A stretch of DNA of 64,000 bases from the NCBI GenBank assembly GCA_043754535.1, contig JAYUUN010000048.1, positions 64,484 through 128,483 of the forward strand, read 5' to 3'. The notes beneath the pieces were generated by a model. The model did no database searches, was not told where the DNA came from, and saw only the letters and a program-made list of their open reading frames with translations. Position numbers and translations under genes: made by a program. The stretch is from Chloroflexota bacterium (lineage in GTDB: Bacteria; Chloroflexota; Chloroflexia; QHBQ01). Numbering within the stretch: position 1 is the first letter of the stretch; the number at the start of each line of letters is the position of its first letter. This document shows positions 22,575 through 58,574 of this stretch, one piece after another.

Positions 22575-22648
22575 TGGGCTATCGTCTAACGGCAGGACGG
22601 CTGATTCTGGATCAGTAAGTTGGGGTTCGAATCCCTGTAGCCCAGCCA
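22575..22648 (+). tRNA. tRNA-Gln (anticodon CTG), CCA encoded
   Basis: Cloverleaf folded by hand: acceptor TGGGCTA/TAGCCCA, anticodon arm GCTGA-TTCTGGA-TCAGT, T-loop TTCGAAT, 3' GCCA. Confidence 0.9.
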
Positions 22649-22702
22649 ATCCATACGCTTCCAGCTTCCCTGCGGGGAAGGGTCGGGGCCAGAGCCGCAC
22701 AT

Positions 22703-22776
22703 TCGGGTATCGTCTAACGGCAGGACGGCTGACTTTGGATCAGTAAGTTGGGGTTCGAATCCCTGTACCCGAGCCA
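22703..22776 (+). tRNA. tRNA-Gln (anticodon TTG), CCA encoded
   Basis: Acceptor TCGGGTA/TACCCGA and anticodon loop CTTTGGA. The body is nearly identical to the preceding tRNA-Gln. Confidence 0.9.
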
Positions 22777-22779
22777 CCC

Positions 22780-22808
22780 TTGCACTGGCAGGCGTTTTCT
22801 TGTATAAT
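22780..22808 (+). promoter_or_regulatory. sigma-70-type promoter candidate directly upstream of rnpB (TTGCAC-N17-TATAAT)
   Basis: Hexamers at 22780-22785 and 22803-22808, starting 4 nt after the second tRNA-Gln. Confidence 0.5.
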
Positions 22809-22842
22809 TGCAACGCACAAGCACGTACCGTCGCAAGGCGGC

Positions 22843-23213
22843 ATGGTGGGGAGCAGGATGACTGCTGGTCGCGAGACTAGAGGAAAGTCCGGGCTACACA
22901 GAGCAGGGTGCCTGGTGAAGAACCAGGGCAGCGGTGGGCAACTGCCGTTGACAGTCCAAATTGGCGTTCAGCCGCGAGGTTGGGCGAGAGCAACAGAGAC
23001 AACCGCCATTAGCCTGGTGCGAACTGGACTGGTGGAGTGAAAAGGGTAATCCTCCCTGTAGCAATCTCCGAGACGACCGCAAAAGTCGGTGGCTCGCCGA
23101 GTCGGTCGAAAGTCGAGAGCAGCCCTGGAAGCGATGAAGGGGCTGACCCGCCTGCAACGGGTCAAGATAGATGGTCATCTAGAACAAAATCCGGCTTACT
23201 CGCTCTCTATCAT
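22843..23213 (+). ncRNA. rnpB: RNase P RNA, bacterial type A
   Basis: Universal P4 strands GAGGAAAGTCCGGGC (22880-22894) and AAAATCCGGCTTAC near the 3' end. A 12-bp P1 helix pairs 22843-22854 with 23202-23213. Length is about 371 nt. Confidence 0.9.
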
Positions 23214-23252
23214 CGGTGCTAAGTATCGTTGGCAGGTCGCAAGGCTCAATAT

Positions 23253-23325
23253 GGTGGTCGTAGCTCAATGGCAGAGCACCTGATTGTGGATCAGGACGTT
23301 GCGGGTTCGAGCCCCGTCGATCACC
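23253..23325 (+). tRNA. tRNA-His (anticodon GTG) with a genome-encoded G-1; CCA not encoded
   Basis: G-1 pairs with C73. Acceptor GTGGTCG/CGATCAC, anticodon loop TTGTGGA, T-loop TTCGAGC. Confidence 0.9.
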
Positions 23326-23330
23326 CCCTT

Positions 23331-43745: not shown

Positions 43746-46700
43746 ATGCGTTGTGCGAACTGCAATACTCCTGCCCCACCCGGCCAACGCTTCTGCGGCG
43801 AGTGCGGTAGTCTCCTTGCTGCTTCAGTTGCCGAAAGCAACAGCCCGCTGCCACAGGATGAGCGGCGGCAGGTGACGATCCTCTTTGCCGACATCGCGGG
43901 CTTCACCTCCCTCTCTGAAGCCCTCGACCCAGAGCAGGTGACCTCGATCATCAACGACTGCTTCGCCGCTCTTGCCGAGCCAGTAGCCCTCTATGGTGGC
44001 ACGATTGACAAGTATATTGGCGATGAGATGATGGTGCTATTCGGTGCGCCTACTGCCCACGAGGACGACCCCGCCCGTGCTATCCACTGCGCCCTTGCTA
44101 TGATCGAAAGGATTGCCAGCTTTAATATAGCAAAGGGCGGCATCTTGCCCCGCCCGCTCGCTCTACACGTGGGCATAAACAGTGGGCTGGTGGTGGCTGG
44201 GCAGATGAGCGGGGCGGGGCGGGGCTACACTGTGGTTGGGGATGCGGTGAGCGTGGCCGCTCGGCTAGAGGAGATGTGCGGCTACAACGAGGTGCTAGTC
44301 GGTGAGACTACCCATCAGGCCGCCGCAGCCATCTTCGCCTGGGAACGCACTAGTAGTTTGCAGATGCGCGGCAAGGCTGGCGAGATGAGCGTCTATCGCG
44401 TGCTGGGGCTGCGGGCGGGTGAGCAGGGCCAACGTGACGTGCTGGGGGTTCCACTGGTAGGCCGCGAAGAAGAACTGACCACTCTTGAGCGGCTGGCGCG
44501 GGGGCTAGAGGAGCAAGGCGGTTTCGCAGCGATCTTTGGCGAGGTGGGCATTGGCAAGAGCCGCCTGCTAGCCGAACTGCACCAGCGGTTGGGCGAGGGT
44601 AGCAATGTGCGTTGGGTGGCTGTAGCAGGCCAGCAGGTTGGGCAACAGTTCGACTACCAGCCCTGGCGCGAGGCGATCCAGGCAATTTGCCGCCTGGAAC
44701 TGGGCAATGTCACCTGGGCGCAACTGCACCTGCGGAACCTGCTAGAAGACCTGGCGGTGGCCGAGTTGGAGGAGACTTATGCTGGATTGGCCCGCTTGCT
44801 CGGCATCAGTGGGGAGGGCAGCCACGGCGAGGAGGTGCTAACCCTCACCCGCAGTGTAGAGCGTCTGCTGCGGGCAATGGCAGCTCGCCAACCGATCATC
44901 CTCGTCCTCGACGATCTGCACCAGGCCGACTCTGCATCGCTCGAACTGCTCAAGGCCGTTGCCGCTGCACCAGAGATCAGCGGGCTGCTGCTGATCGGCA
45001 GTTGCCGCTCAGATGGGGGCGCGGGGGAGCAGGCGTTGCGCCGGGCGGTAGCTGCCGCCGAAGGCACCTACCGGGCGCGCAGTCTCGTGTCCCGCTTGCC
45101 CGCCCTGAGCAACGCTGAAAGTGTCCGCCTGATCACCGCCCTCTTTGAGGTAGAAGGCCTGCCAGAAACGGTGCAGCAGTTGCTTGTAGAGCGTGCAGGT
45201 GGCAACCCCCTCTATATCGAAGAAGTGATCCGCAGCCTGATCGATGGCGGCCAGATTCACCAGCTAGTCTACCGCGAGGGGCTAGTTTTCCGCCCACATA
45301 CAGAGCAGTTGACAGAGGTGTTGGCGGTGCCGCTTTCGCTAGAGGGGGTAATTAGCGCACGGATCGACCGCCTGCCTGCTTCTGCTCGCCAGGTTTTGCA
45401 GGTGGCCGCCGTGCTGGGCCGCCGCTGTGAAGTGCCAGTGCTGGCCTACCTGTTGCAGCGCGAGGGACAGGCAGTAGACTTGCTGCCGCTGTTGCAAGAG
45501 TTGCAGCAACGCGAACTGCTGACCCTCAGCCGTGGCAGCCTTACCTTCCGCCACGTGCTGACCCAGGAGGTGGCCTACAACCGCCTGCTGCTCAATACCC
45601 GCAGGCTATACCACCAGACCGCTGCCAACTACTATGCTGCCTTGTCGCTCCCGATGCCGCTACGCGCCCGTGCTGACCTCGGCAGCCTGTTCGCTACCTT
45701 CTACCACCTGACCCAGGCACAGGAGTACACGGCAGCCTACGCCCTGACCAACCTCCCCCTGCTACTGGGCGACCAGCCACTGACCCTTGACACGCTGCTA
45801 GATCGCTGGGGCGAGAACGCCAGCCGCCGCACCTTCTACCGCCAACTCGCTCCCCACCTGAGTGGCGCGGAGCAGATCGAGGTGCTGACCCGACTGGGGC
45901 GGGCTAGCTACTACCTGGGCGAACTCCGCGAGTCGGGCGTAGCCTACGAGGAGGGGCGCAGGCTGGCGGCGGAGCAGGGCGATCTTGCCCGTCAGTCCTT
46001 CTTCGTCGGCTTGCTGGGCAATACCTATCAGGCGATGGGCGACTACCAGGCCGCCCTCGACTGCTACGACCAGGCACTGCCAGTGGCGGTGCTACAAGGC
46101 GACCGGGGGTTGGAGGGCCGCTGGTTGAACAACATCGGCGTGATCTACATAAACAGCGGGCAGAAGGAGCGAGCTGAGCCATACTTCCAGCAAGCCCTAG
46201 CTATCGCCCGTGAGATCGGTGACCGCCGTGCTGAGGGGATGAGCCTGGGCAACCTGAGCATCGTTTACAAAGGCAGCGACAACGAGCAGGCGATTGCTGC
46301 TGCTCTTGCTGCCCTGACGATCACGCGTGAGCTGGGCGACCGCCGCGCCGAAGCGATCTGGCTGGGCAACCTGGGCAACTGCTACGATGAGGTTGGTGAC
46401 AGGACGCTGCAAGCTCAGTACCTTGAACAGGCGGTCAGCCTGGCCCGCGAAGTCGGTGATCAGCAGACGGAGAGCCGCTTCCTAGCTAACCTGGGCTTGA
46501 TGTACTGCCATCTGGGACGCAACAGCGAAGCGCATGACCATCTGAACCAGAGTCTGATCATCGCCCTGCGGATCGCGGATCGCTCTTGCGAAGCGACGGC
46601 TCGCGGCTACCTGGGTCTCACCGCCCAGACCGAGGGTGATCTTGTCCAAGCCGAAGACTACCTGCGGCAAGGGGCTGCCATAGCAACCCGAAACGGCGAT

Positions 46701-47093
46701 CACTATTATTCGGCGCGCTTCATGGTCGAGCTAGCTGGGGTGTTGCTCACAATGGGGCGCGTGGCGGAGGCGCAGGTTGGGCTGCAACAGATAGCAGATG
46801 ACGATCAGCAGAACAAGGAGTCGCTGACCAGCCTGGTGCAAAGTCTCCAGGCTCGCATCGCTGCGAGAGGGGGCAAAGTGGTGGCGGCTCGCGAGTGGAT
46901 AGAGGCAGCAAAGAACGGACAGGGCGGCTTGCGCGAGGAGCAGGCAATGGTCAGCTACAATCTTGCCTGCGCGCAAGCCAGGCTTGGCGACTGCACGGCG
47001 GCAATGGCGATGCTGAACCAGGCAATAGAGATACTGCCGCGCTACCAGGCGATCAGCAAGGTTGAGGAGGATTTGGCGGGCTGTCTGCCCTGA
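43746..47093 (+). CDS. zinc-ribbon / class III nucleotidyl cyclase / AAA (STAND-like) ATPase / TPR multidomain signalling protein
   Basis: CANC...CGEC ribbon. Cyclase motifs ILFADIAGFTSLSE, YGGTIDKYIGDEMMVLFGAP and VVGDAVSVAARLE. P-loop GEVGIGKSRLL, Walker B ILVLDDLHQAD, and C-terminal TPR units. Confidence 0.85.
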   Translation: MRCANCNTPAPPGQRFCGECGSLLAASVAESNSPLPQDERRQVTILFADIAGFTSLSEALDPEQVTSIINDCFAALAEPVALYGGTIDKYIGDEMMVLFGAPTAHEDDPARAIHCALAMIERIASFNIAKGGILPRPLALHVGINSGLVVAGQMSGAGRGYTVVGDAVSVAARLEEMCGYNEVLVGETTHQAAAAIFAWERTSSLQMRGKAGEMSVYRVLGLRAGEQGQRDVLGVPLVGREEELTTLERLARGLEEQGGFAAIFGEVGIGKSRLLAELHQRLGEGSNVRWVAVAGQQVGQQFDYQPWREAIQAICRLELGNVTWAQLHLRNLLEDLAVAELEETYAGLARLLGISGEGSHGEEVLTLTRSVERLLRAMAARQPIILVLDDLHQADSASLELLKAVAAAPEISGLLLIGSCRSDGGAGEQALRRAVAAAEGTYRARSLVSRLPALSNAESVRLITALFEVEGLPETVQQLLVERAGGNPLYIEEVIRSLIDGGQIHQLVYREGLVFRPHTEQLTEVLAVPLSLEGVISARIDRLPASARQVLQVAAVLGRRCEVPVLAYLLQREGQAVDLLPLLQELQQRELLTLSRGSLTFRHVLTQEVAYNRLLLNTRRLYHQTAANYYAALSLPMPLRARADLGSLFATFYHLTQAQEYTAAYALTNLPLLLGDQPLTLDTLLDRWGENASRRTFYRQLAPHLSGAEQIEVLTRLGRASYYLGELRESGVAYEEGRRLAAEQGDLARQSFFVGLLGNTYQAMGDYQAALDCYDQALPVAVLQGDRGLEGRWLNNIGVIYINSGQKERAEPYFQQALAIAREIGDRRAEGMSLGNLSIVYKGSDNEQAIAAALAALTITRELGDRRAEAIWLGNLGNCYDEVGDRTLQAQYLEQAVSLAREVGDQQTESRFLANLGLMYCHLGRNSEAHDHLNQSLIIALRIADRSCEATARGYLGLTAQTEGDLVQAEDYLRQGAAIATRNGDHYYSARFMVELAGVLLTMGRVAEAQVGLQQIADDDQQNKESLTSLVQSLQARIAARGGKVVAAREWIEAAKNGQGGLREEQAMVSYNLACAQARLGDCTAAMAMLNQAIEILPRYQAISKVEEDLAGCLP

Positions 47094-47097
47094 CCGC

Positions 47098-47805
47098 TCA
47101 ATCCCGCTCGAAGCGGCGCACGCCTGTTGGCCCAGCCACAATCGCTAGAGCGGCCACGCCGACGAACAGACCGTGTTCGACCACACCAGTCATTAGCTTG
47201 ATCTGCTGGGCTAGCTTGAGCGGGTCGGGGATCGCGCTGAAGCGGCAGTCTAGCACGTAATTGCCGCCGTCGGTGATGTATGGCTGAGCGGTCGCCAACT
47301 GGCCTGGGGCGGCAGGTCGCAGCACAGGTTCGCAGCCCAGCGCACGTAGCAGGCCTGCTACATACTGCCAGCCGAAGGGGATCACTTCGACAGGCAGCGG
47401 CAGGTGGGTGCCGAGGGCGGCCACCAACTTGCCCTCATCCGCAATGATCACTTCGCGGTCAGTAGAGGCGGCCACTAGCTTCTCGCGCAGCAACGCCCCA
47501 CCACGGCCCTTAACCAGGGTGAGGCTAGGCAGCAGGATTTCGTCGGCTCCATCAATGGTGATGTCCAGGTGTGGCTGCTCGACCAGGCTGGCAAGAGGGA
47601 TGCCGAGGTCGCGGGCGAGGGTGGCAGTACGTTCGCTGGTTGGCACGCCAACCACACGCAGGCCCGCCCGCACTCTAGCAGCCAACGGCGCAAGCAGCAA
47701 CTCTGCTGTGCTGCCGCTACCCAGGCCGACGGCCATACCATCGGTGATCAACTCTAGGGCAGCGTCTGCCGCCGCTTGCTTTAGCCTGTTAGCCTCTCCA
47801 CTCAA
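47098..47805 (-). CDS. rpiA: ribose-5-phosphate isomerase A
   Basis: GLGSGST, IDGADE and KGRGGALLREK motifs. The TTG start has GAGGAGG 7 nt upstream and overlaps the upstream stop. Confidence 0.9.
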   Translation of the reverse strand: MSGEANRLKQAAADAALELITDGMAVGLGSGSTAELLLAPLAARVRAGLRVVGVPTSERTATLARDLGIPLASLVEQPHLDITIDGADEILLPSLTLVKGRGGALLREKLVAASTDREVIIADEGKLVAALGTHLPLPVEVIPFGWQYVAGLLRALGCEPVLRPAAPGQLATAQPYITDGGNYVLDCRFSAIPDPLKLAQQIKLMTGVVEHGLFVGVAALAIVAGPTGVRRFERD

Positions 47806-48329
47806 CTCTGAGCCTCCTCAAGGTTGCCCTTCAACAAAGCCACCTGCTGCTCAATTACTTGCATTGGTGGCAGGTCGTCACGGCCACTGCCGATGTAGAG
47901 CCAGCGGATCACAGCTTGCTGATCGATCAGCAGTGCCGCCGGGTGGGTGGTCTTGGCTCCGCTGCTGCTGAAGATGCGTGCATCCAGGCCGGTACGAAGC
48001 AGACCATAATTAGTGATTACCGTCAGGTCGCTATCGAGCAGGTAGGGGTAGCTGAGGGGTTCGAGGCGGAAGTAGCTGGCTACAATGTCAGCCCGCTGGT
48101 GGGCAATGCCTGCAATCTGTACCCCCTGCCGCTGGAAGCTACGATAATTAGCTTCCAGGGTCTTCATCTGACTGCGGCAGCTAGGACACCAGGTGCCACG
48201 GAAGAAAAAGAGGAGCAGCGAGCCAACCTTGAGCATTTCAGTCAAGTTCTGCACGTTCCCCTTCAGGTCAGTCAGGGTAAAATCCGGGGCGTAGTCACCA
48301 ACACTTAGTCTAGTTTCACTCTGCGGCAT
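47802..48329 (-). CDS. thioredoxin-fold CxxC protein, PRX-like2/AhpC-TSA family, paralog 1
   Basis: FFRGTWCPSCR and IAHQRADIVASYFRLEPLSYPYLLD. The ATG at 48329 (MPQSETRL) has AGGAG 5 nt upstream. Confidence 0.8.
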   Translation of the reverse strand: MPQSETRLSVGDYAPDFTLTDLKGNVQNLTEMLKVGSLLLFFFRGTWCPSCRSQMKTLEANYRSFQRQGVQIAGIAHQRADIVASYFRLEPLSYPYLLDSDLTVITNYGLLRTGLDARIFSSSGAKTTHPAALLIDQQAVIRWLYIGSGRDDLPPMQVIEQQVALLKGNLEEAQS

Positions 48330-48445
48330 GGTTACTCCTGGTTTTGCTAAAGTCAGTCCGTCCAGCCTTTTTGCCAAGATGCTTTGGTGGCCGCTGCTCC
48401 AGGGGCAGCATCCACGGTTGCCTGCTTGAAGGGCTTACTCCAAGC

Positions 48446-48985
48446 TCAACCCTCCTCCATTGTGCCTTCCATCTGGGGGAGGCCGACTGCGCTTAGTTGT
48501 GCGACGATCAATTCTACCGACGGCAGATCATTTTTGTCGCTGCTGACGTAGGCCCAGCGGATTATGCCCGCCTGGTCGATCAGGAAGGCAGCAGGGTGTG
48601 TGGTTTGCGCCCCCATGCGGCTGACGAGCAGCGCACCGAGGGCAAAGCTGTGAACCAGCCCATAGCTGGTGATCACTGTCATGGTGGAGTCCAACAAATA
48701 GGGGTAGCTGATCGGTTCGAGGCGAAAGTAGCTAGCTACAATGTCGGCTCGCTGGTGCGCCACCCCCGCCAGTTGCAGGCCACGTTGCAGGAGGTCTTCG
48801 TAGCTGCTCTCCAACACCCTCATGTAGCTGCGGCACTCGGCGCACCAGGTGCCACGAAAGAAAAAGAGCAGTAGTGGCCCATGCCTTAGCATCTCTGCCA
48901 GGCTGTACTGCCCTCCCTTGAGACTGGGTAGGCTAAAGGCCGGGGCGGGGTCGCCCACCTGCAATTGGCTGTCAACCTGCGGCAT
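48446..48985 (-). CDS. thioredoxin-fold CxxC protein, PRX-like2/AhpC-TSA family, paralog 2
   Basis: FFRGTWCAECR and VAHQRADIVASYFRLEPISYPYLLD. The start overlaps paralog 3 by 14 nt. Confidence 0.8.
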   Translation of the reverse strand: MPQVDSQLQVGDPAPAFSLPSLKGGQYSLAEMLRHGPLLLFFFRGTWCAECRSYMRVLESSYEDLLQRGLQLAGVAHQRADIVASYFRLEPISYPYLLDSTMTVITSYGLVHSFALGALLVSRMGAQTTHPAAFLIDQAGIIRWAYVSSDKNDLPSVELIVAQLSAVGLPQMEGTMEEG

Positions 48986-49520
48986 GATCTACCTTTGGCG
49001 CAGCGGCTGGGCGGTCGAAACCCGCCAACGCGATCTGCTCAGCAATCTCGTCACTGTCGGGCCGATCACTAACCTCGCTACCGACATAGAGCCAGCGGAT
49101 CGTTCCCTTTGGGTCAAGCAGCAGCACCGCTGGGTATGCCGTGCGCGGGCTGCGACTGTAGGCCACTTCCTCGGCTGGCACGCTGTCCACCAGGCCGTAG
49201 TTAGTGATCACCTTCAGGTCGCTGTCGAGTAGGTAAGGGTAGCTGATCGGTTCGAGCCGAAAGTAGCCGCCCACGATCTCAACCCGCTGATGAGCAATCG
49301 CCACCAATTGCACCCCTGCTGCCTGGTAGCTGGCGTAGTTGCGCTCTAGCATCTTGAGGTAGGCCCGACAGGTGGGACACCAGGTGCCGCGTAGGAAGAC
49401 CAAAAGCAGAGGGCCAGCCGCGAGCAGCGTTTGTAGCTGCTGGCTCTGGCCCGCAATATTAGGCAGAGTGAAGGCAGGTGCCTGCTCACCCACGTGCAGC
49501 TTTGTCATCTCCTGCGGCAT
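48972..49520 (-). CDS. thioredoxin-fold CxxC protein, PRX-like2/AhpC-TSA family, paralog 3
   Basis: FLRGTWCPTCR and IAHQRVEIVGGYFRLEPISYPYLLD. The ATG lies 2 nt after the paralog 4 stop. Confidence 0.8.
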   Translation of the reverse strand: MPQEMTKLHVGEQAPAFTLPNIAGQSQQLQTLLAAGPLLLVFLRGTWCPTCRAYLKMLERNYASYQAAGVQLVAIAHQRVEIVGGYFRLEPISYPYLLDSDLKVITNYGLVDSVPAEEVAYSRSPRTAYPAVLLLDPKGTIRWLYVGSEVSDRPDSDEIAEQIALAGFDRPAAAPKVDHAAG

Positions 49521-49522
49521 GA

Positions 49523-50092
49523 TCAGCCTTCCTGGTAGCGTGACGGCTGCTCGGTAGTGGGCAGGTAGATAACTCCAGCAGTAGACAAGCCGGTGTTTAG
49601 CACCTCTTGCTCTATCTGTTCGCCAGTTGGCAGGTCGCCATAATCCTCACCAATATACTCCCAACGGATCAATCCTGCATGGTCAAGAATAAAGACCGCT
49701 GGGTAAGTGGTGTGGCTAGTGCCACTCTTGAGTACGTCTTCTTCTTCGGGGTGTTCGATGCTCAGGCCGTAGCTGTCTATTACCCGCCGCTCTGTATCGA
49801 GCAGGTAGAGGTAGTTGACTGGTTCGAGGCGGAAGTAGCCAGCCACGATGTCTGCCCGCTGGTGCGCGATGCCAACCAGTTGCAGACCGCTAGCCTTAAT
49901 ACGGGGCAGGCGGTGTTCTAGCATCCGCATATAAGCACGACAGGTACCGCACCACGTACCGCGAAAGAAGACCAGCACCAGCGGCGCGCTAGCCAGGAGG
50001 GTATTGAGTTGGTGAGGATGCCCACTTATATCCTTCAAAGTGAAGTCGGGGGCATGATCGCCAAGCCGCAGTTTTGTTTGGATTTGTGGCAA
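49523..50092 (-). CDS. thioredoxin-fold CxxC protein, PRX-like2/AhpC-TSA family, paralog 4
   Basis: FFRGTWCGTCR and IAHQRADIVAGYFRLEPVNYLYLLD. I propose the TTG at 50092 (giving MPQIQTKL, like the other paralogs; GGAGG 9 nt upstream) over the track start at 50167. Confidence 0.75.
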   Translation of the reverse strand: MPQIQTKLRLGDHAPDFTLKDISGHPHQLNTLLASAPLVLVFFRGTWCGTCRAYMRMLEHRLPRIKASGLQLVGIAHQRADIVAGYFRLEPVNYLYLLDTERRVIDSYGLSIEHPEEEDVLKSGTSHTTYPAVFILDHAGLIRWEYIGEDYGDLPTGEQIEQEVLNTGLSTAGVIYLPTTEQPSRYQEG

Positions 50093-50189
50093 CTTCCTGT
50101 GCCTCCAATAAGATAAGCTGTATAGCATCCACTCTGAATCCGACTGTCTATCTGCTTTGTACCGCACACTTAGAGCTAGCAGGTTTGTG

Positions 50190-50305
50190 CTAGGTGTTGC
50201 TCGTTACTGGCTGGTCGCTGATAAGTAGCTGGCGGATATGTTCTGCAATCTGTTCACCACTGGGCAAATCATCGTAGCTGTTGCCTATGTACCGCCAGCG
50301 GATCG
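50190..50305 (-). pseudogene. C-terminal remnant of a fifth PRX-like2 paralog
   Basis: It translates to IRWRYIGNSYDDLPSGEQIAEHIRQLL..., which aligns with LIRWEYIGEDYGDLPTGEQIEQEV of paralog 4. An in-frame TGA lies two codons upstream and no N-terminal part is present. Confidence 0.7.
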
Positions 50306-50336
50306 ATCACTCGATGCTATTGTACTTCTTCCTGAC

Positions 50337-51080
50337 CTACTTTGTCAACCCAGTGGCGGCTACTTCGTCTAGCATGAAGATCAGCTTGCCCGCTTGGGGG
50401 GCAACCAACTGTGAGGGGTAGAGGTCAGAATTGACCGCACCCTCAAGCACTTCGCGCACTGCTGCTGCCTTATCTGCGCCCGCAACCAGGAAGACCACGC
50501 AGCGGGCGGCATTGATCAGGGGAGCAGTGAAGGTCAATCGCTCCACTGCTAGCTTCGGCACGTAGTTGGCAACCACGAGGTCGCTGCTGTTGTGCAAGGC
50601 AGCGGTGCCAGGAAAGAGGCTGGCGGTGTGGCCGTCCGGCCCCATGCCGAGGAGGATCAGGTCGAAGCTGGGGAACTCGCCCACGCCCTTGTGAAAGTAG
50701 CCACGTAGCTCCTCCGCATAGGCGGCAGCCACCTGCGCTGGCGTACCAGTTTCGGTCAGGTAGCGGTGGATGTTTTCGCGCTCGATTGGCACCTCCGCCA
50801 GACCCTCTGCGGCCAGCTTGTAGTTGCTGTCCGGGTGGTCAGGAGGAACAGGCCGTTCATCGCCCCAGAACAGGTTGATTAGCGACCAATCTAGCTGCGT
50901 CTTGTACTCTGGGCTACTGAGGAAGCGGTAGAGGGCTTTGGGTGTGCTGCCGCCAGAGAGGGCAACGTTGAAGGGGCTGTCTTCACTGGTTTGGGTCGCA
51001 GCAAGCTGGATGAACAACTTTGCTGCCGCCTCTGCCACTGCGTCCAGGTCTTTGTATACCTGTACTTCTCTATCTGCCAC
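50337..51080 (-). CDS. pgl: 6-phosphogluconolactonase
   Basis: LSGGSTPKALY, WGDERPVPPDHPDSNY and LLGMGPDGHTASLFPG. Confidence 0.92.
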   Translation of the reverse strand: MADREVQVYKDLDAVAEAAAKLFIQLAATQTSEDSPFNVALSGGSTPKALYRFLSSPEYKTQLDWSLINLFWGDERPVPPDHPDSNYKLAAEGLAEVPIERENIHRYLTETGTPAQVAAAYAEELRGYFHKGVGEFPSFDLILLGMGPDGHTASLFPGTAALHNSSDLVVANYVPKLAVERLTFTAPLINAARCVVFLVAGADKAAAVREVLEGAVNSDLYPSQLVAPQAGKLIFMLDEVAATGLTK

Positions 51081-52338
51081 CGCGCACCCCCTTGTCTACC
51101 TTCTTTGTGCCAGTAGTACTGCTCATCCAAACTGCCATCTGCAAGGCCTGCTCGAAGGCAGAGTCGTGGCCGAGATTGCCGAGCGCATTACCAACCAGTT
51201 GCGCCCAGGCTTGCTTACCCAGTGGCACGACGCGCTCGATCCTGTTCTGGCCCTGCACCTCAATGATAGTACGGATGTGTTCGGCTGGCGGTTTGCTACC
51301 ATCGGCCTGCGGTTGCTCGTCGAAGGCGATCCTCTCCAGGGTGAAAGTGGCCGCCACCCCGTTGTAGCTTCCCTCCATTACTACTTCGGCAATATCGCCC
51401 GCCCAGATGTTGTCGGCGGCAGTAGTCAACACCCCGGCGTAGAGTTGGCTGCCAGTGCTAGAACGCAAGGTGATCGCCGAATTGCCACTCTCCTGCGGGC
51501 TGATCTCGCTGGGCCGCCAACTCATCTTGTCGCTCAGCCACCCCAGGTAGAGCAGAGCCTGGCAGGGGTTGAGCGGGCGGTCATCCTGAACTACGTAGCG
51601 CACAGTAATTTTGCTCAGGTTGGGCAGGTATGAGCGCAGGCTGGGCGAGTCGAAGACCTGGGCGGTCAGTTGCCGCCAGGTGAGCAAGCGCAGCCAGTTG
51701 AGGTCGGTGATCGCTATCGATGGGTAGTCCTGCTCGTGCAGAGCTTCCAGGCGCACAAGATTGCTGTTCGGCTTGCCAAAGCGCATCGAGTCCACGATCA
51801 AATGGTCGGCACTTTGCAGCAGCGGGGTAAAGAGGGCCGGGTCAAGCGACCAGCCATCCGCTGCCAATGCGCCGCTCGGCCAGTCGGGCCAACCCAGGGC
51901 CACTGGCAGGTCGGAGGTGAGTAGGGGGATGACAGTGCCAGGCAGGATGGCGGCAGCATCGCCCCCACTAGCAGTGATGTTGATCTGTTCGCCGCAGACT
52001 GGCATCCCCCCACCGACTGGCAAGCGGCAGTGGGCGGCTACCGTCGCTTTGACCGTGCTTGCCCCTTCCCCACCCTCGTTGACCAGCAAGATAGCACGGC
52101 AGGGGTGCTTCATAGTCAGGTCTATGATCTGGCTGGTCAGCGGCTCAAGCTGCTGGCTGTTGCGGGCCATGACGATCAGGTTGAGAATACTGAAGCGCAC
52201 CACTGCCTTACTCGGCTCTACCCCCGTGCGGGCTGCTGCCCACAACGCAGTCAACTCACGGTCAATAGAGCGCGGGTCAACATCCAGCGGCGTACCGTTG
52301 ACAAAAGTCTGGAGCCTCTGTTCTTCCTGCGTGTTCAT
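51070..52338 (-). CDS. opcA: glucose-6-phosphate dehydrogenase assembly/allosteric protein OpcA
   Basis: Position between zwf and pgl. OpcA-like features include IDRELTALW, NLIV and HPCRAILL, with a C-terminal OpcA_G6PD_C-like half. Confidence 0.8.
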   Translation of the reverse strand: MNTQEEQRLQTFVNGTPLDVDPRSIDRELTALWAAARTGVEPSKAVVRFSILNLIVMARNSQQLEPLTSQIIDLTMKHPCRAILLVNEGGEGASTVKATVAAHCRLPVGGGMPVCGEQINITASGGDAAAILPGTVIPLLTSDLPVALGWPDWPSGALAADGWSLDPALFTPLLQSADHLIVDSMRFGKPNSNLVRLEALHEQDYPSIAITDLNWLRLLTWRQLTAQVFDSPSLRSYLPNLSKITVRYVVQDDRPLNPCQALLYLGWLSDKMSWRPSEISPQESGNSAITLRSSTGSQLYAGVLTTAADNIWAGDIAEVVMEGSYNGVAATFTLERIAFDEQPQADGSKPPAEHIRTIIEVQGQNRIERVVPLGKQAWAQLVGNALGNLGHDSAFEQALQMAVWMSSTTGTKKVDKGVRGGR

Positions 52339-52355
52339 CTTTACCTCCTGGGTCG

Positions 52356-53927
52356 CTAGGGCCGCCGCCAGACGAACCCATCACGACTGAGCATCTCGTG
52401 GGCCTCACGTGGCCCCCAGCTACCCGCTTCGTAGTTGGGGAACTGGGGGGGGGGCAGTACCTTCCAACCATCAAGGATCGAAGTGACGATGGTCCAGGCC
52501 GCCTCCACCTCATCGGCGCGAGTAAAGAGGGTGGAGTCACCCAGCATACAGTCCAGGATCAGCCGCTCATAAGCGTCGGCGGGCTGGGTGCCAAAGGCGG
52601 TGTTGTAGCGGAAGTCCATGTTGACTGACCGAATCTGCATTCGGGTGCTGGGTACCTTCGACTCGAACTTCATGCTGATCCCCTCGTCCGGCTGGATTTG
52701 CAGGGCCAGGATGTTGCGGTCAAGCTGCGTCACCCCAGAGTCGCGGAACAGCATCAGCGGCACCGGCTTGAAGGTGATCGCGATCTCGCTGCTGCGGACT
52801 GGTAGCCGCTTGCCAGTGCGGAGATAGAAGGGGACACCCTGCCACCGCCAGTTTTCGATAAACAGCTTCATGGCGACGAAGCTCTCCGTGTTGCTGGTCG
52901 GGCTAACCTTCGGCTCTTGGCGGTAGCCAGGTACTTGCTGGCCCCCACTGCTGCCCGGCCCGTACTGGCCGCGCACCACGCGCTCGGCTACCTCACGCGG
53001 GTCTAGCGGCTTGATCGAGCGGAATATCTTCACCTTCTCATCACGGATCGCGTCGGCCTCAAAGTCGCTGGGCGGCTCCATCGCGGTCAGGGCAAGCTGC
53101 TGCATCAGGTGGTTTTGTACCATATCGCGCAGTGCGCCTGCCCCTTCGTAGTAGCCAGCCCGCTCCTCTACCCCCAGCGACTCGGCAACGGTGATCTGCA
53201 CACTCTCAACGTAGCGGCGGTTCCAGATAGGCTCGAAGATCGTGTTGGCGAAGCGGAAGACGAGGATGTTCTGCACCGTCTCCTTACCCAGGTAGTGGTC
53301 GATACGGTAGGTCTGGCTCTCGTCAAAGACCTCATGCACCTTGCTGTTGAGGTGGCGGGCCGTTGGCAGGTCAGTGCCGAACGGCTTCTCGATGATGATC
53401 CGCGTCCAACCACTACCCGCCCAGTTCTGGCGGGCGATGCCAGCCGCCCCAATGTTGGCGATGATCTCCTCGTAGGTAGAGGGAGGAGTGGAGAGGTAGA
53501 AGACACGGTTGCCGCCCGTATTACGCTCGCGGTCAAGGTCACTGAGCAGGCTGGCTAGGGTCTCAAAGGCGCGCTCGTCGTTAAAGTCGCCTTGCACATA
53601 GTGCATCCCTTGCAAGATCGACTCCCAGGTACCCGGCTCCAGAGGGCGGCGAGAGAACTGCTTGATCGCCTCCTCCATCTCGGCCCGAAACTGCTCGTCG
53701 GTATAAGGCCGCCGCCCAAAGCCAACGATAGAGAAGCCGGGTGGCAGCAGGCGATCCACCGCCAGGTTGTAGAGCGCGGGGATCAGTTTGCGGTGGGCCA
53801 GGTCACCCGTCACGCCAAAGATCACCATCGCGCACGGTTCGGGCGTGCGTTGCAGACGCATCCCTTCCCACAGTGGGTTACTGGCTAGCTGTTCTTCAAG
53901 CAGCCCTGCCGCATTCAGCGTGGTCAT
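52356..53927 (-). CDS. zwf: glucose-6-phosphate dehydrogenase
   Basis: [25 protein letters not shown] and EKPFG motifs across the full length. Confidence 0.95.
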
Positions 53928-54175: not shown

Positions 54176-55162
54176 TTAGCTCTGCTCCTTAGCTGCGCCA
54201 CCGTCCAGGGTTGCCGGGGCGTGGCGTTCCTCAACGAACTGACCGCTCTCGTTCATCACCGCGTGGCCGCCAAACTGGTTGCGTAGGGCTGACAACACCT
54301 TTGCGGAGAACGACTCCGGCTGGCGGCTGCTGAAGCGGGCCATCAGGCTGAGGGTGATGATCGGGGCGGGTACGTCCTCGTCAATCGCTGCCTGCACCGT
54401 CCAGCGGCCCTCGCCGGAGTCTGGGACGAAGCCCTTGATCTCGGTCAGGTCGGTACCATACTGGTAGAAGGCGCGCTCAGCCAGTTCCAGCAGCCAGGAG
54501 CGTACTACGCTGCCGTTGTTCCAGAGGCGGGCGATCTGATAGAGGTCGAAGTCCGCGCCGTAATCCCGCGACTGCTTAAGAATCTCGAAGCCCTCACCGT
54601 ACGCCTGCATCATGCCATACTCAATGCCGTTATGCACCATCTTGACGAAGTGGCCCGCGCCGTGCAGCCCCATATAGCCGTAGCCGTTCTCTGGGGCCAG
54701 CGTCTTGAAGATCGGCTCGAAGTGGTCGAACATCTCCTTCTCGCCGCCGACCATGGTGGCGTAGCCGATTTGTAGTCCCCACACGCCGCCGCTCACGCCC
54801 GCGTCCATGTAGTGCAGGCCAGCAGCCTCTACCCGCACTTTGCGCGTGATGCTGTCGCGGAAGTTGGAGTTGCCACCGTCCAGGATGGTGTCTCCCTTGC
54901 TGAGTAGAGGGATCAGTGCGTCGATCTGGTCGTCCACCGGCTTGCCGCTCGGCACCATGATCCAGAGCAGCTTCGGCCCCTCCTTGAGGCTACCGACCAG
55001 TTCCTCCAGGGTGCGGGTAGCGGTGATCTCTGGGTGTTGGCTGCTGATCCCCTCGGTGACGCTGTAGGTGCGGTTGAAGGCGTAGACCTTGTGGCCGCCT
55101 TGCGCCAGGCGCACAACCATGTTGCCGCCCATTTTGCCCAGGCCGATAAATCCAATCTCCAT
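54176..55162 (-). CDS. gnd: 6-phosphogluconate dehydrogenase (decarboxylating), short-chain form
   Basis: IGFIGLGKMGGNM Rossmann motif, GGNSNFRDS, GVSGG and HNGIEYGMMQAYGEG. The ATG at 55162 has GAGGAGG upstream; the track start at 55273 is probably too long. Confidence 0.9.
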   Translation of the reverse strand: MEIGFIGLGKMGGNMVVRLAQGGHKVYAFNRTYSVTEGISSQHPEITATRTLEELVGSLKEGPKLLWIMVPSGKPVDDQIDALIPLLSKGDTILDGGNSNFRDSITRKVRVEAAGLHYMDAGVSGGVWGLQIGYATMVGGEKEMFDHFEPIFKTLAPENGYGYMGLHGAGHFVKMVHNGIEYGMMQAYGEGFEILKQSRDYGADFDLYQIARLWNNGSVVRSWLLELAERAFYQYGTDLTEIKGFVPDSGEGRWTVQAAIDEDVPAPIITLSLMARFSSRQPESFSAKVLSALRNQFGGHAVMNESGQFVEERHAPATLDGGAAKEQS

Positions 55163-55414
55163 TGCTTTAACTCTCCTCCTCGCGGTGGCGATCCATTGAT
55201 GTCGATCTGCTGAAGTATAGCACGAAAGCGCGCCCTGCGGCTGGGGGCTCCCCGCCACCGTTCTTGCTAGCATGGCACGTGCCAGCCCACGGCCCAGCCT
55301 CTATAACTGCCCTATTCTACCACAAAGCGGCTCTATCCGCATAGACTCCGATCAAATGTGCGTGTTTGCGCGGGTGACTAGCCTGAACCTGAGCAGCTAC
55401 CTTCTACAAGTCAG

Positions 55415-55688: not shown

Positions 55689-58574
55689 CTATGTAGCGGC
55701 CAGGGCGTAGGCCACCGCCTGCGCCCTACTCATCGTCTGCCCGGCGGCCCAGGCAAGTCCAAACGCCGCTTCACCCAACCGCTCACGGCAGCGGGTAAGG
55801 GTACGATCATAGTGCGCCCGCTCAAGCGGCAGCCAGGCATTCTGCTCGAACAAGGCCTCACCGCTACTCAACAACTGCACGGCGCGCCTGCTATCAGCAG
55901 TGCCACCCTCGGCGGCCAGCAGGCCAAAACTGGTCAGTGCATCCACTATGGTGGCTAGATCGTCTATGCTGGCAGCCAGCCGCAGACCTTGAGTGAGTAG
56001 TCGCTGTGCCTCTAGCTTGCTATCCTGGACACGCTTCAGGTTGCCAAGCCGGAGCAGAGCAATAGCCTCCAACGACTGGTAGCCGCAGTCGTGGCTGAGG
56101 GTAAAGGCGGCCTGGTAGAACCGCTCGGCCTCTATTAGCTCCCCCTCCGCATAGGCCACCCGACCCAGGCCATCAAGGGCAATGGCAGTAGCTATTTTGT
56201 CGTTGAGCTCGTGGGCGATAGCCAGGTTTTCCATGTACAGGGCGCGGGCTTGCTGGTAGTTACCATGCCACAAGGCGATGCCAGCCAGGCTCAGGGCTAC
56301 ATCAGCGGTGGCTTGCTTGTCACCCCGCTGCTGGCTGATCGCCCTGCTCTCCTCCAACAGCGGGGTTGCAACCGCGTAATCTTTGGCGACCAGCGCAATG
56401 TTGCCCAGGTTGTAGAGGCCAGTACCGATCAAACGCTGATCGCCCAATTCGCGGGCTATCGCCAGGCTCGTCTGGTAGCGGGCGGTGGCGGTGGGGTAGT
56501 CGCGAGCTTCGCCTGCGACATTGCCCAGGTTGTTGAGCGAAGCCGCTTCGCCACGGCGGTCGCCCAGTTGCCGCCGCAGCAGCAATGCCTGCTCGTAGCA
56601 GCTAGTAGCGGCGGGGTGATCGCCCTGCCAAAAGGCGAGGTTGCCCGCACCGTTGAGGGCTTTGGCCCGTGCGGCAGGGTCGCCGTCGGGAGTAGCAGCA
56701 AGGGTGGCGGCCAGCAACTCGCGGCCCAGGCTGAGGTGGCCGTGGCCCTCCCAGAACCGCCAGAGTGCGCCCGCCAGCCGCAGGGCGAGCGGGGGGTCGT
56801 TGCTTAGCCCCCAGGTAATCGCCTGCCGCAGGTCGCTATGCTCGGCTTCGAGGGTGTTGAGCCAGTAACCTTGACGGCTGCTCCGCAACTCCGGCTCGGC
56901 GGTCTCGGCCAGCCACAGATAGTAGGCAGCGTGCCGCTCGGCGCAGGCGACAGCTTCACCGCTAGCAGCTAGCTTCTCGGCAGCAAACTCCAGAATGGTT
57001 TGCAGCATGGTGTAGCGCAGGTCTGCCGCCGTCTCAACTCCAGCAGGGGGGATCAGGCGGCGCAGCAGGCTCTTGTCGGCCAGGGCATCGAGGGTGGCGG
57101 CCAGGTCGTCGCCCGCATTGGGGCTGACCGCACTGGCAGCGGCAACGGTGCAGCCCGCACTAAAGACGGCGAGGCGGCGGTAGAGTTGCTGCTCAGCCGG
57201 GGAGAGCAGGTCGTAGCTCCAGGCTATCGTCTCGCGCAGGCTGCGCTGGCGGGGGTCGCTAACCCGCAGTTGGCTGACCAGGGCCAGCCTGCTACCCAGC
57301 CGCTGCTCCAACTGGGGGGCAGTGATCAGCTTGCAACGAGCGGCGGCCAGTTCAATAGCCAGCGGCAAACCGTCTAGCCGCACGCAGATCGCCGCTACCG
57401 CCGCTGCGTTCTCCTCACTCAAGCGGAAGTGGGGATTGACTGCCCCAGCCCGGCTGACGAACAGGGCGACCGCTGGGCCGCGTTGCAGTTCGGCGAGGGC
57501 AGGCAGTTGCTTGAGGTCGGGCAGCGGCAAGGGCGAGAGCGGGTACTCCTGCTCGCCCGCCAGGTGCAAGGGTTCGCGGCTGCTGACCAGCAGGCTGAGG
57601 GTGGGGGCGGCGGCCAGCAGGTCACCTAGTAGGGGAGCGGCTTCGAGCAATTGCTCAAAGTTGTCTAGCACTAGCAGCAACCGCCTACTCTGCACAAAGC
57701 CACGCAGGGTCTCCTCCAGGCTACCGCCCGCCTGCTCGTTCAGGCCCAGGGTGGCGGCCAGGCTGCCCAGCAGGTCGGCCCGATTGCTGCTGCTAGCTAG
57801 CGGCACAAAGTACACGCCCGCGCACTCGTCCACCAATCCGGCGGCCACCTGCAAGCTGAGGCGCGTCTTGCCTACCCCCCCCGGCCCAACGATGGTCAGC
57901 AAGCGAGCATTGTGCTGGCGCAGGCAGGCACGGATAGCGGCTACCTCCACCTCGCGGCCCACGAAACTGGTAAGCTGAGCAGGCAGGTTGTGGGGGCGCG
58001 GGTCAAGCGTGGGCAGCGGAGGGAAGGTGTCGAGCAGGTCTGGGGCAGCCAGGCGGTAGAGCCGCTCGGCAGGCAAGTCGCGCAGTAGCCGTTCGCCCAG
58101 GTCTAGCAGGCTAAGGCCCTTCGCCAGCCGTCCAGCCAGGGCGTGATTAAGCGCGGCAGAGACAAGCATCTGACCGCCAGCGCAAACCGCCAACATCCGC
58201 GACAGGCGGTTGAGAGTGAGGGGCGCATAGTAGTCTTCGCCGCGCTGCTCGGCAGGGCCACAGTGCAGGGCCATCTTCACCCGCAAGCTGCCAACCCCCC
58301 CCCAATCCTCGGTCAGCAAAGCGCGTTGAGCGGCGGCGGCGGCAGCGAGAGCAGCAGCGGAGTCGGGAAAGGCAATACAGCATTGGTCGCCGATTACCTG
58401 AAAGATAGTGCCACCGCCTGCAGCTACCGCTTGCTGCAAGATCGCATGGTGACGATCCAGGGTGGGCTGCATCAGGCGCGGCTGCATCTCCCAGTAGCGG
58501 GCAGCACCCTCAATGGCTGTAAAGAGAAATGTATAGGTAGCCCCAGTATCCTGCTGCATAGCTGCCCCTCCCAC
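55689..58574 (-). CDS. STAND-type ATPase (NB-ARC/AAA) with a degenerate N-terminal cyclase-homology domain and C-terminal TPR repeats
   Basis: N-terminal YTFLFTAIEGAARYWE (first metal Asp replaced by Ala) and VIGDQCCIAF. P-loop GPGGVGKTRL, Walker B LLVLDNFEQ, and at least 8 TPR-like units. Confidence 0.8.
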   Translation of the reverse strand: MGGAAMQQDTGATYTFLFTAIEGAARYWEMQPRLMQPTLDRHHAILQQAVAAGGGTIFQVIGDQCCIAFPDSAAALAAAAAAQRALLTEDWGGVGSLRVKMALHCGPAEQRGEDYYAPLTLNRLSRMLAVCAGGQMLVSAALNHALAGRLAKGLSLLDLGERLLRDLPAERLYRLAAPDLLDTFPPLPTLDPRPHNLPAQLTSFVGREVEVAAIRACLRQHNARLLTIVGPGGVGKTRLSLQVAAGLVDECAGVYFVPLASSSNRADLLGSLAATLGLNEQAGGSLEETLRGFVQSRRLLLVLDNFEQLLEAAPLLGDLLAAAPTLSLLVSSREPLHLAGEQEYPLSPLPLPDLKQLPALAELQRGPAVALFVSRAGAVNPHFRLSEENAAAVAAICVRLDGLPLAIELAAARCKLITAPQLEQRLGSRLALVSQLRVSDPRQRSLRETIAWSYDLLSPAEQQLYRRLAVFSAGCTVAAASAVSPNAGDDLAATLDALADKSLLRRLIPPAGVETAADLRYTMLQTILEFAAEKLAASGEAVACAERHAAYYLWLAETAEPELRSSRQGYWLNTLEAEHSDLRQAITWGLSNDPPLALRLAGALWRFWEGHGHLSLGRELLAATLAATPDGDPAARAKALNGAGNLAFWQGDHPAATSCYEQALLLRRQLGDRRGEAASLNNLGNVAGEARDYPTATARYQTSLAIARELGDQRLIGTGLYNLGNIALVAKDYAVATPLLEESRAISQQRGDKQATADVALSLAGIALWHGNYQQARALYMENLAIAHELNDKIATAIALDGLGRVAYAEGELIEAERFYQAAFTLSHDCGYQSLEAIALLRLGNLKRVQDSKLEAQRLLTQGLRLAASIDDLATIVDALTSFGLLAAEGGTADSRRAVQLLSSGEALFEQNAWLPLERAHYDRTLTRCRERLGEAAFGLAWAAGQTMSRAQAVAYALAAT

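Follow-up and report, generated by a model that had tools for sequence, protein, structure and literature searches.

A tandem array of four CxxC redoxin genes in a pentose-phosphate operon of a Chloroflexota bacterium

Why would four related redoxin genes stand in the middle of an operon for the pentose-phosphate pathway? This question is raised by a stretch of 64,000 nucleotides (nt) from a Chloroflexota bacterium (contig JAYUUN010000048.1; hereafter the window, to which all coordinates refer unless another locus is named), where four genes coding for small CxxC proteins lie between pgl and rpiA. We number these copies Rdx1 to Rdx4, starting from the rpiA end. The explanation that we favor, with a probability of roughly 0.55, is that they would encode four non-redundant, cytoplasmic, thioredoxin-like thiol-disulfide oxidoreductases, inserted in a pentose-phosphate operon and partly co-expressed with it. 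What is new here is an uncharacterised subfamily and a gene arrangement within a well-known superfamily, and not a new kind of system.

Four paralogs between pgl and rpiA

The genes follow one another on the minus strand in the order gnd, zwf, opcA, pgl, a 244-nt spacer, Rdx4, Rdx3, Rdx2, Rdx1 and rpiA, and the identity of every flanking pentose-phosphate gene is confirmed by Pfam matches. Rdx4 (49523..50092; 189 amino acids, aa; active-site motif CGTC) matches AhpC-TSA with an E of 6e-22 and Redoxin with an E of 1e-17, and has a TTG start codon after GGAGG. It is followed by Rdx3 (48972..49520; 182 aa; CPTC; AhpC-TSA, E 3e-22), Rdx2 (48446..48985; 179 aa; CAEC; AhpC-TSA, E 1e-23) and Rdx1 (47802..48329; 175 aa; CPSC; AhpC-TSA, E 2e-24). 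The start of Rdx1 is an internal ATG that yields the N-terminal MPQ common to the paralogs, and the same length of 175 aa is called on identical contigs. The array is bordered by pgl (50337..51080, minus strand; 6-phosphogluconolactonase; Pfam Glucosamine_iso, E 9e-71) and by rpiA (47098..47805, minus strand; ribose-5-phosphate isomerase A; Pfam Rib_5-P_isom_A, E 3e-59). Open reading frames on the opposite strand across the array (e.g., 47859-48308, plus strand) were set aside, as the domain matches and the cross-species conservation are all on the minus strand.

A preliminary description of this DNA, made from the letters alone, had recognised four co-oriented CxxC paralogs with a common signature at this place, and this is confirmed. 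The proteins are 45-57% identical in pairwise comparisons, find one another by tblastn with E from 1e-50 to 1e-66, and share 59 invariant columns that include MPQ, RGTWCxxCR, AHQR, YFRLEP, YLLD and IRW.Y. At the DNA level, a 141-nt block is present in four copies with 68-73% identity. It had also been suggested that tight junctions point to translational coupling, and three of them are compatible with it, namely the 14-nt overlap of Rdx3 and Rdx2 (48972-48985), the 2-nt gap between Rdx4 and Rdx3 (49521-49522) and the overlap of the Rdx1 stop codon with the rpiA start (TTGA, 47802-47805). However, the wider gaps, of 116 nt between Rdx2 and Rdx1 and of 244 nt between pgl and Rdx4, had gone unmentioned.

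A thioredoxin-type active site on a PrxQ-like scaffold

The AhpC/TSA fold with a thioredoxin-type CxxC that had been proposed for these proteins holds: all four match PF00578 (AhpC-TSA; 78-87 bits for a cutoff of 26; E from 2e-24 to 6e-22) and PF08534 (Redoxin; 61-68 bits for a cutoff of 26.6), with E from 1e-16 to 1e-24 over the two families, and alignments to sequences of solved structures agree. The AlphaFold2 model of Rdx2 (pLDDT 88, pTM 0.85) has a thioredoxin fold. When it was used as a Foldseek query, ResA (4nmu) ranked top, about equal to the PrxQ-type Bcp4 and Bcp1 of Sulfolobus (TM-scores of 0.62-0.78, normalised to the query), the highest TM-score, 0.78, being that of Bcp4. A ResA-type oxidoreductase was also the best match of a single-sequence search of the PDB (4nmu, E 5e-9), with GTWCxxC aligned residue for residue. 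With a profile of 125 family sequences, the best full-length PDB matches were PrxQ/BCP proteins (2ywn, E 8e-30; 2cx3, E 4e-27). The N-terminus, MPQ..T.L.VGD.AP, begins at the first strand of the fold, which starts at about residue 7, and Rdx1-4 show no signal peptide or membrane anchor. As there is no N-terminal extension, the proteins are presumed to be cytoplasmic.

Each protein holds exactly two cysteines, both in the invariant motif FFRGTWCxxC. In the profile alignment to PrxQ (2ywn/2cx3), the Pro and the Thr of the peroxiredoxin motif PxxxTxxC correspond to Arg44 and Cys48, respectively, and the peroxidatic Cys to Cys51, so that only the Cys itself is kept; the catalytic Arg at the start of beta-strand 3 is replaced by Pro130/131 ('iarPalfiid' in the redoxins versus 'LAKRAVFVID'). 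These three replacements are invariant, or nearly so, in 125 family members. Thioredoxins and cytochrome-maturation proteins have a cis-Pro where peroxiredoxins have this Arg, and peroxiredoxins use T/S-x-x-C (thioredoxin-fold atlas, PMC2757866). In the Rdx proteins, C48-x-x-C51 is found in all four copies at the N-terminus of helix 1 (helix 49-67 begins there in the model), and Pro130/131, just before beta-strand 3, aligns with the 'LPDTF' Pro of the TlpA-like protein 3hdc, a likeness to the cis-Pro in position. Judged by sequence, Rdx1-4 are thus proteins with a PrxQ-like scaffold and a thioredoxin/ResA-type active site, and most likely cytoplasmic thiol-disulfide oxidoreductases rather than peroxidases. 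If they work as their homologs do, the N-terminal Cys of WCxxC would be the nucleophile and the second Cys would resolve the mixed disulfide, the protein cycling between dithiol and disulfide.

The homologs in which an in-frame TGA takes the place of the Cys48 codon bear on the same point. There are four of them, 33-36% identical to the redoxins of the window, from Methylomirabilota, Tectomicrobia and Poribacteria genomes (L013:3614-3616; L015:10142-10144; L019:10142-10144; L024:10142-10144), and in all of them homology runs on to the normal C-terminus. In L013, L015 and L019, a hairpin of 6-7 bp starts 17 nt after the TGA, as expected of a bacterial selenocysteine insertion sequence (SECIS) element, while the Poribacteria homolog (L024) has the motif UxxS, without the second Cys. 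These homologs are probably selenoproteins with UxxC, which gene prediction would cut short. Pairs of selenocysteine and cysteine mark catalytic redox residues. Consequently, the exchange at the first position of CxxC points to the first Cys as the catalytic redox residue, and the location of selenocysteine there, and not at the peroxidatic position, favors a thioredoxin-like mechanism over peroxidase chemistry. Lists of bacterial selenoproteomes contain a 'Prx-like thiol:disulfide oxidoreductase' with UxxC, whereas selenoprotein peroxiredoxins have T/SxxU (PMC1794560). The wider family resembles the former in having UxxC members, a likeness of motif and not of compared sequences, although the redoxins of the window are Cys forms.

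The other possible chemistry is that of atypical PrxQ/BCP-like thiol peroxidases that detoxify peroxides directly, where Cys51 would take the peroxidatic part and Cys48 the resolving one. The alignment of Cys51 with the peroxidatic Cys, the two best full-length profile matches and the top TM-score would all fit such a role, as would the names 'peroxiredoxin family protein' and 'peroxiredoxin Q/BCP' that automatic annotation gives to family members. Length and the order of secondary-structure elements are also similar to those of PrxQ/BCP. Nevertheless, it would have to be a peroxidase in which all three catalytic residues other than Cys have been replaced across the family, and whose selenocysteine homologs have UxxC, in contrast to the T/SxxU of selenoprotein peroxiredoxins. 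Moreover, the NCBIfam peroxiredoxin models all score far below their cutoffs. We therefore consider this alternative unlikely, although it has to be taken seriously.

In fact, no NCBIfam model reaches its cutoff for the four redoxins or for four distant homologs. The top scores of the redoxins are those of ResA (46-60 bits for a cutoff of 170) and of NF040769, 'SelL-related redox protein' (48-61 bits for a cutoff of 120, with 55-62 bits for the distant homologs). The likeness to ResA, TlpA and CcmG consists of GTWCxxC and of the proline at the cis-Pro position. By contrast with those proteins, the redoxins have neither signal peptide nor anchor, no cytochrome c maturation genes are found nearby, and the C-terminal half is PrxQ-like and longer.

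The pattern named for these proteins in the preliminary description was PRX-like2 (PF13911; eukaryotic PRXL2A/B/C; SelL), an assignment that stands in part. By alignment, the second Cys of CxxC falls where peroxiredoxins have the peroxidatic residue, and their Thr and Arg are missing, as in that type, and distant homologs do match PF13911 (AhpC-TSA_2), as for instance in L014 (32.2 bits for a cutoff of 27) and in many members of the wider family. However, none of the four Rdx proteins matches PF13911 at E<=0.01, their NF040769 scores are well short of the cutoff, and they belong to a small, Chloroflexia-restricted clade with motifs of its own. We take cd02970 (PRX_like2) to be the CDD counterpart of this CxxC-on-peroxiredoxin-scaffold pattern. 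A literature search on SelL/Prx-like2 turned up little.

The size of this clade may be compared with that of the family that surrounds it. Among the matches listed, more than 3,800 proteins with FFRGTW[C/U]xxC were found at E<=1e-10, mostly named 'peroxiredoxin' automatically. By contrast, the clade with the motifs of the window (AHQR, YFRLEP and IRW, with an insertion of about 7 residues) is tiny: 13 clusters at E<=1e-5 came out of a word-indexed search through 5.8 billion proteins, and an exhaustive HMMER search over 1.84 billion representatives at 50% identity found 8 proteins at E<=1e-30, two of them with E<1e-60. Annotation pipelines thus give the CxxC/UxxC proteins a name, peroxiredoxin, although the active sites of these proteins speak against a peroxidase reaction. 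Among the best remote matches of the Rdx profile there are several long proteins of 366-1430 aa (P0132-P0135, P0145 and P0148), with 2-5 stretches that resemble a redoxin; domains of this type therefore seem to be duplicated in tandem within fused genes as well.

Age, decay and genomic context of the array

That the array has gone through duplication and decay, as had been proposed, is supported by a remnant of a fifth copy and by the age of the paralogs. The remnant (50190..50306, minus strand) is a pseudogene of 38 codons plus a stop codon, which translates as SIRWRYIGNSYDDLPSGEQIAEHIRQLLISDQPVTSNT*. The C-terminal ends of the paralogs can be aligned with it, Rdx4 being its best partner (61% identity over 23 aa by tblastn), and a 42-nt DNA repeat has its fifth copy here. 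Several metagenomes contain nearly identical contigs (L002-L007 and L083), and a sister species is represented by a metagenome-assembled genome (MAG) labelled Chloroflexia bacterium at NCBI (JBBROH010000007; L001/L008), with the same gene string and Rdx proteins that are 91-95% identical. Of the fifth copy, the sister species preserves a stretch longer by 125 nt, which runs from the YGL motif to the stop codon, and the remnant in the window has a further internal deletion relative to it. The two genomes would thus hold one pseudogene at two stages of decay. The GC content is 0.54-0.59 over the remnant and Rdx4, compared with about 0.60-0.63, a dip too small to argue for a foreign origin from composition.

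The four intact copies have been retained. Synonymous divergence (dS) from the sister species is 0.16-0.23 for all genes of the string, and the ratio of nonsynonymous to synonymous divergence (dN/dS) is 0.095 for Rdx4, 0.16 for Rdx3, 0.18 for Rdx2 and 0.30 for Rdx1, compared with 0-0.12 for the pathway genes. Consequently, all four are under purifying selection, somewhat looser than that on the pathway enzymes. In a neighbour-joining tree (without support values), the window-type clade holds only Chloroflexia-type sequences, and the paralogs of the window interleave with sequences of other genomes instead of being one another's exclusive closest relatives. The duplications are therefore old, and the paralogs, as far as the tree tells, ancient rather than recent. 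Thus, the check by dN/dS and paralog phylogeny that had been proposed earlier points to ancient copies maintained by selection.

How the array came to its place is suggested by relatives in which the operon is uninterrupted. In three Chloroflexia loci (L076-L078), gnd-zwf-opcA-pgl-rpiA is found with rpiA directly after pgl (within 3-17 nt), and their OpcA is 46-49% identical to that of the window. One of these loci, L076, belongs to the same MAG as L011, where a pair of redoxins of this subfamily is kept elsewhere, between the genes for arginine deiminase (ADI) and DUF711. As relatives have an uninterrupted operon and their redoxins elsewhere, the array of the window would have been inserted into an ancestral zwf-opcA-pgl-rpiA operon, at the junction of pgl and rpiA, in an event specific to this Chloroflexia lineage. 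No transposase, integrase or flanking repeats were seen around it.

Outside this lineage, the subfamily is found in Chloroflexia MAGs as a tandem pair between ADI and DUF711 (L010:8332-12419; L011:8008-12414; L052:6883-11800), as a single gene in the same setting (L009:100-3395) and after infB-rbfA (L012). Neither ADI nor DUF711 is present in the 64-kb window. In L010 and L052, arginyl-tRNA synthetase is encoded upstream of the ADI-Rdx-DUF711 genes, with no apparent functional link.

A more divergent organism, known from a 2.1-kb contig (L082), has three redoxin genes followed directly by rpiA, with an RpiA that is 75% identical. Its copies are Rdx4-like, Rdx1/2-like and of a third type related to the redoxin of L012. 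The slot upstream of rpiA therefore seems to have persisted while the number and composition of the copies changed. The array would thus evolve by gene birth and death, with one copy in decay here and three partly different copies in the divergent relative, and the locus offers a compact example of this process within an operon, with four old paralogs under selection, a pseudogene at two stages of deletion and a further lineage with a different set.

A distant homolog (about 30-37% identical, with the motif CPFC) is also found near pentose-phosphate genes in loci of Armatimonadota type. In six of them (L014, L021, L027, L030, L060 and L066), it is co-directional with gnd-zwf and lies 1.6-3 kb upstream; between them are encoded one or more TPR proteins and/or a small membrane protein, DoxX and a WrbA-like FMN reductase. 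There is no opcA in these loci, and zwf is duplicated in L014, L021, L030 and L060. The whole neighbourhood, which occupies a single strand (7133-13275 in L021), looks like an oxidative-stress/NADPH cluster. Two independent juxtapositions in a few dozen lineages exceed the chance of about 1% per locus that we roughly estimate, which is suggestive rather than conclusive. The survey of related genomes thus bears out only in part the linkage to the pentose-phosphate genes that had been described. It is found here, in L082 and, loosely, in Armatimonadota, but it is lineage-specific and not general to the subfamily, as the contiguous pgl-rpiA of L076-L078 indicates.

Several of these observations weigh against the explanation that we favor. 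The overall best profile match of the redoxins is to PrxQ/BCP peroxidases (E 8e-30), and peroxidase activity would be compatible with their sequences. The nearest relatives with the subfamily have it away from pentose-phosphate genes, and contexts in the wider family are heterogeneous (S41 peptidase/PDZ, Roadblock/LC7 and others), with no conserved partner and no reductase; on this ground, the position in the operon could be a tolerated accident. In addition, the genes within 10 kb include none for a thioredoxin reductase or another electron donor, and the array, together with rpiA, may be regulated apart from zwf-opcA-pgl through a candidate promoter that is described below.

Some of these points would also be expected if the operon position had no functional meaning at all, that is, if a mobile tandem array coding for general housekeeping redoxins had been tolerated there, with rpiA expressed by read-through. 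Other Chloroflexia loci (ADI-pair-DUF711 and infB-rbfA-Rdx), the heterogeneous contexts of the wider family, the separate promoter-like site before the array and the lack of any motif beyond chance common to the regions upstream of gnd, zwf, Rdx4 and Rdx1 are all in line with it. However, three lineages have retained the arrangement, with RpiA identity as low as 75% and despite the turnover of copies, a distant homolog stands independently upstream of gnd-zwf in several Armatimonadota genomes, and no sign of mobility such as a transposase, an integrase or flanking repeats was seen. A meaningless insertion is consequently rather improbable in our estimation.

Expression and the link to the pathway

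The transcription of the array may start at zwf, by read-through, at a promoter of its own, or at both. A sigma-70-like promoter candidate, TTGACA-18-TACAAT (50319..50348, minus strand), agrees with the consensus at 11 of 12 positions and lies across the stop codon of pgl; the sister species has the same two hexamers, with 2 changes among the 18 spacer bases. Scanned for terminators, the pgl-Rdx4 spacer and the remaining gaps yielded none, and the terminator-like matches were all inside coding sequence. Similarly, an Rfam scan of 44-58 kb found no RNA family and hence no riboswitch or leader. The regions upstream of gnd, zwf, Rdx4 and Rdx1 show no common operator: they yielded no long palindromes and one 12-mer with one mismatch, AGCAGAT(A/C)GACA, found on the minus strand upstream of Rdx4 (50156-50167) and of gnd (55201-55212), where about one such match is expected by chance. 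As the rpiA start overlaps the Rdx1 stop codon, leaving no room for a promoter of its own, rpiA must be transcribed through at least Rdx1. Gene anatomy thus suggests co-expression of the redoxins with one or more enzymes of the pentose-phosphate pathway.

On this basis, the thiol-disulfide oxidoreductases that we propose would have been placed, by the insertion into the ancestral operon, in a transcript that they share with some pentose-phosphate genes. NADPH production and a set of thiol reductants would then be expressed jointly, for defence against oxidative or disulfide stress, with NADPH passing its electrons to the redoxins by way of a reductase encoded outside the locus. Such a coupling of the redoxins to the NADPH supply is plausible. 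If it exists, the locus would be a clear example, at the genome level, of NADPH production packaged with thiol reductants, and would give a first functional handle on the large uncharacterised CxxC/UxxC 'peroxiredoxin-like' family described above. Even so, the locus opens no long-standing question, and it is confined to a few metagenome-assembled Chloroflexia.

A more specific role had been suggested, that is, modulation of OpcA in the way reported for cyanobacterial thioredoxin. In Synechocystis, the redox control of glucose-6-phosphate dehydrogenase (G6PDH) depends on a disulfide of OpcA, C410-C416, in a C-terminal loop that contacts G6PDH, a switch controlled by thioredoxin (PMC11648896). 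The situation here is similar in that thiol-disulfide proteins are tied to the oxidative pentose-phosphate pathway and opcA (51070..52338, minus strand; G6PDH partner protein; Pfam OpcA_G6PD_assem and OpcA_G6PD_C; PDB 9emm_E, E 2e-23) lies in the same gene string as the array and zwf (52356..53927, minus strand; G6PDH; Pfam G6PD_N and G6PD_C, E 2e-128). It differs in that the redoxins are not thioredoxins, that the link is genomic alone and, above all, that the OpcA of the window has cysteines at 80, 104, 115 and 259 only. None is found in its C-terminal 160 residues, and the Cys pair of the cyanobacterial loop has no counterpart.

Could Rdx1-4 still be dedicated redox regulators of OpcA-G6PDH, or of other pentose-phosphate enzymes, like thioredoxin-m acting on cyanobacterial OpcA? 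The common gene string, the cyanobacterial precedent and the alignment of Cys 80, 104 and 115 with cysteines of Synechocystis OpcA (9emm_E) would fit this idea. However, these three cysteines are in the N-terminal domain, which in Synechocystis OpcA is away from the G6PDH interface, and the G6PDH of the window has only two cysteines (32 and 460). Furthermore, relatives with an opcA operon of the same kind lack a redoxin gene there and have the subfamily at other loci, the Armatimonadota redoxin/gnd-zwf loci have no opcA, and four distinct regulators would be unexpected for a single target. A dedicated role in regulating OpcA is, as a consequence of the missing C-terminal pair and of these two sets of loci, unlikely, and the claim that OpcA is modulated as in cyanobacteria finds no support here.

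Another view would make use of the differences among the copies. The dipeptide within CxxC is a different one in each of the four, and the sister species shares three of them. It is conceivable, if decidedly speculative, that Rdx1-4 are wired to the oxidative pentose-phosphate pathway as a dedicated, graded redox relay or as a hetero-oligomer. Such a relay might sense or set the thiol state of pathway proteins, such as the conserved N-terminal cysteine cluster of OpcA. If true, this would be a new, thioredoxin-independent coupling of NADPH production to the thiol redox state in a non-cyanobacterial lineage, and the Armatimonadota neighbourhood would reflect the same coupling.

The string begins with gnd (54176..55162, minus strand), which codes for a short-form 6-phosphogluconate dehydrogenase of 328 aa (Pfam NAD_binding_2, E 3e-39; 6PGD, E 1e-23) and is called with this length on identical contigs. 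Its open reading frame reaches 55273, that is, 37 codons (55163-55273) upstream of the start chosen by gene callers on those contigs, and still farther upstream, at about 55315-55323, there is an extended -10-like sequence, TGGTAGAAT. Two large STAND-like signalling proteins, which the sister species conserves, are encoded on either side of the pentose-phosphate string. One combines a cyclase domain with an AAA ATPase and TPR repeats (43746-47093, plus strand; 1115 aa), and the other, an open reading frame of 961 aa, has NB-ARC/AAA and TPR (55689-58574, minus strand). Elsewhere in the window, there is a cluster of tRNA genes for tRNA-Gln(CTG), tRNA-Gln(TTG) and tRNA-His(GTG) (22575-23328, plus strand).

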